Below the pieces are notes generated by a model, which saw nothing but the letters and a program-made list of their open reading frames with translations, did no database searches and had not been told where the DNA came from. From assembly GCA_951406725.2 (NCBI GenBank), contig OX597824.1, forward strand, positions 93,496,001 through 93,560,000: 64,000 nucleotides of DNA. Reading direction: 5' to 3'. Source of the stretch: Octopus vulgaris (Eukaryota). Shown here piece after piece: positions 54,855 through 55,687 of the stretch. Every line of letters starts with the position of its first letter. Position 1 is the stretch's first letter. Made by a program: the position numbers and the translations under genes.

Positions 54855-55221
54855 TTGCATGTTCAAATCATGGACACATATACACAGTAAGTATCAAAAC
54901 GTATTGACATAGCAGATTTATATCAACACATTAGATGCAAACTTTCTCTATCTTGAGATATATCTATCCGTCGGAGCGGTCGCGAACTTGCCTGCATAGG
55001 TATGTATGTGTGTGTATGTATGTATGTATATATATATATGCATATGTGTATATACATATATATATATATATATATTTATATATAGAGGGCATTATACATA
55101 CATGCCAGAAGGCATTATATATACATGCCAAACGCTAAGAGGGACAATTAGTCATTTCTACCAAAAAATATTACTAATCCCACCGAATGCAATTTTTCAA
55201 AGTAAGACATTTAAAAAATAT

Positions 55222-55269
55222 AGACCTGTATCACAGTGATTTCATACTTACGTACTCATCAGCAGGCCT
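55222..55269 (-). ncRNA. Type I hammerhead ribozyme, mirror copy
   Basis: Exact reverse complement of 55308-55355. Confidence 0.8.
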
Positions 55270-55307
55270 GAATGCATTATAAATAAACAACGCATTATAA
55301 TGCATTC

Positions 55308-55355
55308 AGGCCTGCTGATGAGTACGTAAGTATGAAATCACTGTGATACAGGTCT
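55308..55355 (+). ncRNA. Type I hammerhead ribozyme
   Basis: AGGCCTG-CTGATGA-GTAC-GTAA-GTAT-GAAA-TCA-CTG-TGA-T-A-CAGGTCT: 7-bp stem I, canonical core, stem II with GNRA loop, stem III and AUA triplet. Predicted cut after 55348. Confidence 0.8.
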
Positions 55356-55687
55356 ATATTTTTTAAATGTCTTACTTTGAAAAATTGCATTCGGTGGGAT
55401 TAGTAATATTTTTTGGTAGAAATGACTAATTGTCCCTCTTAGCGTTTGGCATGTATATATAATGCCTTCTGGCATGTATGTATAATGCCCTCTATATATA
55501 AATTAATATGTTCAATAAGAAATAATTATTTTCGAAATTTTTTCTCTTATGAGGTTTTTACGCTATCTACCTGACAATTTCTTGTTAAGTTTTCCTTATT
55601 AAGTAGTTGTCCTTAATTGCTATATATATATATATATATTATGTTTATATATATGAGTATACATATATAGGTATGTATATATGTTAC

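Follow-up and report, generated by a model that had tools for sequence, protein, structure and literature searches.

A hammerhead-bearing palindrome in Octopus vulgaris as the likely product of a head-to-head insertion of two truncated repeat copies by a Penelope-like element

A perfect 430-bp palindrome with a hammerhead motif on each strand, found in 64,000 nucleotides of Octopus vulgaris DNA (contig OX597824.1, positions 93,496,001 to 93,560,000; this whole stretch is hereafter the window, and all coordinates refer to it), is probably the larger part of a young insertion of ~544 bp (about 55077-55620), made of two 5'-truncated copies of an abundant hammerhead repeat placed head to head in (TA)n. 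The enzyme responsible is likely a Penelope-like reverse transcriptase/endonuclease, probably of the Hydra type, that primed synthesis at both ends of its target. The two copies face each other with their 5' ends, one of them carries a tail that the other lacks, both end at positions internal to the family unit, and other copies of the family are inverted elsewhere. The locus is thus likely an ordinary fresh example of the layout described for Penelope-like elements, embedded in a window of repeat-rich animal DNA. How the inverted ends of these elements are built, and whether their hammerheads cut in vivo, are presented as open questions in the relevant parts of PMC8557442 and PMC11167929. Both would be testable by counting ends in an assembly, given how young and highly abundant this family is and how its junctions scatter.

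The original prediction of a 430-bp palindrome with mismatch-free 209-bp arms and a 12-nt spacer was borne out, as every one of the 209 positions of the left arm (55074-55282) pairs with its counterpart in the right arm (55295-55503). They constitute the longest perfect palindrome of the 64-kb window, whose runner-up, simple sequence aside, has arms of 38 bp. The setting in (TA)n is present on both sides, the absence of an open reading frame agrees with a longest stop-free frame of 54 codons, and the tandem mini-hairpins described for the outer ends were recovered as two 23-nt copies at each of them; the fold of this region on the right (55447-55492) reaches a z-score of -4.1, with 0 of 200 shuffles as good. 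The equation of the palindrome with the whole element (55074..55503), however, had to be given up, since the right copy extends 117 nt further (Table 1). Contig cover passes 55503 and reaches masked (TA)n, and the tail holds a predicted hairpin of its own (z -3.47; 2 of 200 shuffles as good). With this tail on one side only, the insertion is asymmetric. Nine of the 12 spacer bases (55283-55291) are family sequence of the left copy, as read from the loose contig ends at 55288 and 55292 (runs X5, X10, and X4), which extend into family sequence, and loose ends before 55295 (runs X1 and X8) place further family sequence upstream of the right copy. A shared (TA)9T run of 19-20 nt flanks the insertion, and a target-site duplication is indistinguishable here from the microsatellite itself.

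Table 1. Features of the insertion and of its immediate surroundings, in window coordinates.
Feature	Position	Strand	Remarks
Left (TA)n target run	55057..55076		(TA)9T as on the right; possible ~19-20-nt target-site duplication with 55621-55640
Left copy	55074..55291	-	5'-truncated 63 nt upstream of the predicted cut; includes 9/12 spacer bases
Left copy 3' end	short end, mirror of about 55500	-	from mapping of the perfect arm
Left hammerhead motif, type I	55222..55269	-	descriptor match; predicted cut between 55229 and 55228
Junction filler, 3 nt	55292..55294		unlike family sequence on either side
Perfect micro-palindrome, 12 bp	55292-55303		filler and next 9 nt
Right copy, palindromic part	55295..55503	+	5'-truncated 54 nt upstream of the predicted cut
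Right hammerhead motif, type I	55308..55355	+	descriptor match; predicted cut after A55348
Two 23-nt tandem mini-hairpins	55447..55492 (mirror 55085-55130)	+	just 5' of the short 3' end; repeat families D14, D19
One-sided tail, 117 nt	55504..55620	+	family sequence missing from the left copy; supporting contigs 55323-55611, 55295-55622, 55488-55622
Predicted tail hairpin	55573-55611	+	immediately 5' of the long 3' end
Right (TA)n target run	55621..55640		from the sequence

The wider family was traced in public sequencing runs, where 20 of the 24 runs listed, from 10 studies, contain at least half of the sampled words. Three probable DNA runs yielded 885, 3614, and 836 matching contigs, and hence the family is abundant; the summed contig depth of about 1e5-1e6 is not a copy number. 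The assignment of runs X1 and X4 to RNA is a guess, and their unspliced contigs are not counted as evidence of expression. A 441-nt contig from run X8 covers 55295-55622 in unfolded form, with one other letter and one gap, and carries 59 loose letters before and 55 behind the matched part, while a contig from run X1 likewise continues downstream past 55622. The family unit is linear and longer than the palindrome on both sides, both 3' ends of the insertion are internal to it, and its known part spans more than 440 nt without closing. Another loose end in X1, at 55509, enters (TA)n near the short end and represents a second copy that ends there. The very recent age originally proposed fits with three contigs, each from a different run, that differ from the right copy by 0-1 letters and one gap; one of them, 299 nt long, spans 55323-55611 with a single gap and no letter changed. 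Both arms share a run of six Ts (55409-55414) where three near-identical contigs are one T shorter, which fits one template for both arms, the evidence being a single homopolymer site. Neither blastn nor two flanking motifs retrieved a second family copy in the window, and one 22-nt query gave 0 matches in metagenome contigs and 0 in viral contigs.

Contig depth in run X1 (55482-55622) is about tenfold greater across the tail than across the hammerhead arm, and a loose end before 55493 belongs to a diverged relative, in which the 5-bp stem of the mini-hairpin is conserved and its 9-nt loop is altered. The hairpin-plus-tail module may be common to related subfamilies, as a candidate recognition signal for the enzyme.

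Other copies of the family are joined in inverted orientation at no fewer than 15 places. All of the listed joints run from an antisense arm to a sense arm or tail, every one at a different position, and they come from runs X5 (3), X10 (9), and X11 (3), with depths of 15.5-103.6. They were called at 85% likeness with a shorter side of 21-30 letters (under 30 in 14 of the 15), and are individually weak. Among the 30 inner ends of these joints, five are located upstream of the predicted cut, eight at +6 to +12, and 17 further downstream, so that 25 of the 30 are at or past the predicted cut and hence without an intact ribozyme. The two inner ends of a joint fall within 14 nt of each other in 8 of the 15 listed joints, and 92-233 nt apart in six of them.

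These joints bear on two alternative origins. A fold-back artefact of sequencing or assembly would produce arms as perfect as those observed, and the exact junction at 55292-55294 is crossed by none of the contigs listed from eight runs, two of which contain no family reads, and the sampled words reach at most 0.80 in any indexed run. However, the mirror stops at a family-internal end, omitting the tail and the flank, unique sequence resumes on both sides, and similar inversion joints are present in three other runs at the depths given above; besides, a private or rare insertion would be missing from other animals. Such an artefact is considered very improbable. Even less credible is a MITE or foldback DNA transposon with a hammerhead. 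The short, non-coding nature of the sequence, its long inverted arms, and its TA ends would suit an element of this type, but the ends of the insertion are not inverted repeats of each other, the tail is one-sided, and the inner ends are scattered as in 5' truncation. A linear family unit exists, in the form of the 441-nt contig from X8, which largely refutes this origin, and neither terminal inverted repeats nor a fixed structure was found.

For the preferred origin, that is, two primings by a Penelope-like enzyme, the following course of events can be proposed. The enzyme would cut both strands within (TA)n, after which one 3'-OH would prime a cDNA from the short end (about 55500), at which the RNA has the sequence TATATATA and would be able to pair with the target, and the other 3'-OH would start at the long end, about 55620. 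Both putative start sites lie about 8-10 nt 3' of a predicted hairpin. The two cDNAs would then read through the uncut ribozyme, terminate upstream of the cut site, at distances of 63 and 54 nt, and be joined via the 3-nt filler. Because both ribozymes are intact, the template of the locus must have been uncut RNA. The likeness of the short 3' end to its (TA)n target amounts to 8 nt, in contrast to the start site used by the PAc protein, described in PMC11167929 as non-homologous to the cut DNA. An autonomous element and a non-coding derivative of the retrozyme type are about equally likely as the source of the template; no reverse transcriptase or endonuclease frame could be linked to the family in loose ends that show 30 letters at most. 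An autonomous element of the Hydra clade would be expected to encode a telomerase-like reverse transcriptase and a GIY-YIG endonuclease in one frame, with the clade motifs RWK, DKT, and CxCX5C.

Alternatively, a single priming event might suffice: the cDNA begun at the long end would snap back close to the apex and use itself as template up to the short end, and its TATATATA would there pair with the second end of the target. With only one priming, this would account for the 209/209 identity as well as for the six-T run present in both arms, and it would be consistent with the 12-bp micro-palindrome at the junction, as palindromes at inverted junctions are taken as signs of self-priming in PMC3846280, and with the listed joints whose inner ends are within 14 nt of each other. 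On the long-end-primed strand, however, the spacer is in sense and not in cDNA orientation, so that the apex would need later trimming, and the wide separation of the inner ends in the six joints mentioned above is also difficult to accommodate. Two primings are favoured because the spacer is in cDNA orientation on the short-end-primed strand, and a snap-back of that strand could not yield the tail. A single priming is accordingly regarded as unlikely.

The link to Penelope-like elements drawn in the original prediction stands, given that the head-to-head truncated copy, the one-sided tail, the (TA)n surroundings, and the type I hammerhead fit the published layout; three of the features expected of an EN+ Penelope insertion (a head-to-head truncated copy, a one-sided internal tail, and a type I hammerhead) were found. 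According to PMC8557442, Penelope-like insertions are truncated at the 5' end and often have, attached there, a truncated copy in inverted orientation, together with a 30-40 bp tail at one end, and the same inverted-copy-plus-tail layout is reported for Pen2a_Av in PMC3846280. In vitro, the PAc protein acts on both target strands, cutting and extending each, and starts at two internal RNA sites, which define the tail, on a substrate that is mainly uncut RNA, as stated in the corresponding results of PMC11167929. The present locus resembles Pen2a_Av (PMC3846280) and PAc (PMC11167929), as far as these are described there, in its head-to-head truncated copy, one-sided tail, junction palindrome, AT-rich target, and two internal 3' ends. 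Unlike in those systems, both copies are short and non-coding, and the tail of 117 nt far exceeds the 30-40 bp described, which counts against the Penelope reading.

Within the Penelope-like elements, the closest resemblance in published features is to the Hydra clade, almost all families of which target (TA)n according to Files S1 and S2 of PMC8557442. As in the Hydra families treated there, the insertion has a (TA)n target and, close to the 3' end, a type I hammerhead whose stems are short and whose stem III is palindromic about a 1-nt centre; the latter, a palindrome around one base, appears in 17 of the 26 Hydra rows of File S2 (Craig et al. 2021; PMC8557442). The G.U closing of stem II is shared with the entries for Penelope-13_HM and Penelope-17_HM in PMC8557442, and the former is described in the same source as having a 5'-truncated inverted copy and hammerheads on both strands. 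On the other hand, stem III is 5 bp long here with U at 15.2 (an AUA triplet), whereas the Hydra rows of PMC8557442 have 3-4 bp and C at 15.2. The hammerhead listed there for an octopus Hydra family differs in sequence from the present motif, and three motifs of the present hammerhead gave 0 matches in the PMC8557442 supplement. A total of 31 recently active Penelope-like families are reported for Octopus vulgaris in PMC13282606, the main text of which holds no occurrence of 'ribozyme' or 'palindrom'. A literature search for octopus Penelope hammerheads gave PMC8557442 only, and the family may be named in the supplement of PMC13282606 or in Repbase.

The insertion also shares features with non-LTR retrozymes as characterized in the pertinent sections of PMC7229834 and bioRxiv 10.64898/2026.07.22.740005, namely its non-coding nature, a low GC content (0.33), a type I hammerhead, and a high copy number; these sources propose that animal non-LTR retrozymes are moved by Penelope-like elements. 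The head-to-tail tandem of retrozymes is absent at this locus, and loose ends of 30 letters are too short to show the closing of a unit. Linear and circular monomer RNAs are a further mark of retrozymes; among the RNA data, the family occurred only in contigs of the runs guessed to be RNA, and the raw RNA runs X23 and X24 gave 0 reads, a result to which no weight is attached.

The twin hammerheads predicted 13 nt into each arm were both found, and they were the only two matches to a type I hammerhead descriptor in the 64 kb on both strands; 30 shuffled windows gave one match in total. In the right motif, stem I (55308-14/55349-55) has 7 bp and is followed by the core at 55315-21, stem II (55322-25/55330-33) has 4 bp, a tetraloop, and a G.U closing pair, with GAA at 55334-36, and stem III (55337-41/55343-47) is a 5-bp palindrome with a 1-nt centre. 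The description of these hammerheads as complete holds for the core and the three helices in type I order, but stem II is G.U-closed and stem III is palindromic. The search against Rfam that had been recommended as confirmation gave no hammerhead match at the gathering score, nor up to E 10, and the list obtained by E-value consists of sub-threshold, hairpin-driven matches of the miRNA type; the identification as ribozymes is therefore based on the descriptor match and on resemblance to motifs in published tables. In the family, position 55322 (mirror 55255) varies, and the G.U closing pair becomes A-U in 20-41% of the summed depth in three runs. A splice-donor-like hexamer at 55326-55331, in loop II, was considered for a Penelope-type intron; the window contains 33 such hexamers, and none of the contigs listed is spliced.

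Folding predictions suggest that this hammerhead depends on a partner. In the lone 48-nt motif, whose folding energy is unremarkable (z -1.4), the core is predicted to pair with the 5' half of stem III, which leaves the active monomer fold a predicted probability of about 0.003, or 0.006 when summed over three variants. In contrast to this monomer, the homodimer (MFE -30.5 kcal/mol by cofolding) would form stems I and III between molecules and keep both cores free. When the interior of stem III was shuffled, this geometry persisted in only 5 of 300 cases; the dimer energy is not special, as -30.5 kcal/mol or lower was reached in 151 of 300 shuffles. The prediction for a single hammerhead is thus an inactive fold, with activity mainly in the dimer; it would need either a protein or a second RNA that pairs with it by way of the palindromic stem III. 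Similar requirements have been published: the PAc hammerhead cuts only with protein in the assays of PMC11167929, and the single minimal motifs presented by Cervera and de la Pena 2014 (PMC4209133), a source that also reports motif pairs on opposite strands 100-700 bp apart, show little or no detectable cleavage. The weak palindromic helix III, the predicted dimer, and the opposite-strand pairing of motifs are all common to the minimal hammerheads described in PMC4209133 and to the present ones. Unlike the motifs shown there, however, the present hammerhead has a longer stem I (7 bp), a short stem II (4 bp) with no bulged base before it, and a G.U pair in place of the conserved G10.1-C11.1. 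Since the twin motifs are on opposite strands, and one transcript carries one sense and one antisense copy, they would be unable to dimerise in cis, and the opposite-strand copies are better seen as by-products of insertion than as a cooperating pair.

The palindrome had initially been interpreted as a strand-symmetric ribozyme element, retained as a conformational switch or as a trigger of small RNAs. Its symmetry did not survive the analysis, given the one-sided tail, the linear family unit, and the 15 or more other joints at different positions. Regarding the switch, a read-through transcript folds in prediction into a 209-bp hairpin of -365.5 kcal/mol, transcripts beginning at or after 55270 leave stems I and II free in the folding model, and a TATA-box match is present at 55278, which is 30 nt ahead of stem I. 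The masking of the ribozyme by read-through consequently holds as a predicted fold, but it is expected of any perfect palindrome, and TATA-box matches occur at 4.6 per kb across the window. In addition, the insertion is asymmetric, the fold position differs among copies, and no nearby host exon was found among 39 frames with one spurious low-complexity Pfam match. The freed monomer is predicted to misfold, with the active fold occupied well under 1% of the time, and a function as switch or silencing trigger finds no support here. Selection for a switch is unlikely, the insertion being young and the fold point varying within its family, and retention for either function is given very little credence. 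Double-stranded RNA is possible as a by-product, and the locus is not evidence for a new RNA switch.

A more tentative proposal concerns the cutting of the family RNA in vivo. Priming at both ends at hairpin-marked sites 117 nt apart, together with the pile-up of junctions, could reflect RNA cut in vivo by a dimer-dependent hammerhead, and the locus would then be the rarer product of uncut RNA. This possibility is doubtful at present, and the pile-up 6-12 nt past the scissile bond is only a weak lead as a trace of cleavage. The eight inner ends at +6 to +12 give p values of 7e-5 to 6e-4 under a uniform model, with a bin chosen post hoc; three joints contribute six of the eight ends, and ends far upstream are invisible with the present reference. 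The spot is also AT-rich and self-complementary and lies at the foot of stem I, where a stalled enzyme would mimic a cut RNA end. If true, the proposal would provide genomic evidence for in vivo cleavage by a Penelope-type hammerhead.

Elsewhere in the window, a frame at 458-1207 (+) resembles a decayed C-terminus of a LINE reverse transcriptase, and another at 52562-53324 (+) resembles a decayed Tc1/mariner-type transposase. Neither has a Pfam match at E 0.001, and the Pfam search of 39 of the 169 candidate frames gave one low-complexity match to Sec62, below the cut-off. ARAGORN found nothing in the window.

Two copies of an unrelated repeat, at 14530-14590 (+) and 17105-17165 (-) and ~87% alike over 216 nt, carry a motif like that of minimal hammerheads, with a core, a bulged A, a 4-bp stem II, and almost no stem III. 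The copy at 17105-17165 has a changed core base and ends in a palindrome of zero spacer with 38-bp arms and a (TA)n centre (16948-17023). Older inverted pairs of another common repeat, 67-87% alike, are located at 14357-15384 and 29088-29577, the first of which is interrupted by the hammerhead-like repeat of 14530-14590. A 140-nt piece of this common repeat, which has eight matches in the window, lies at 55683-55830, just to the right of the insertion.
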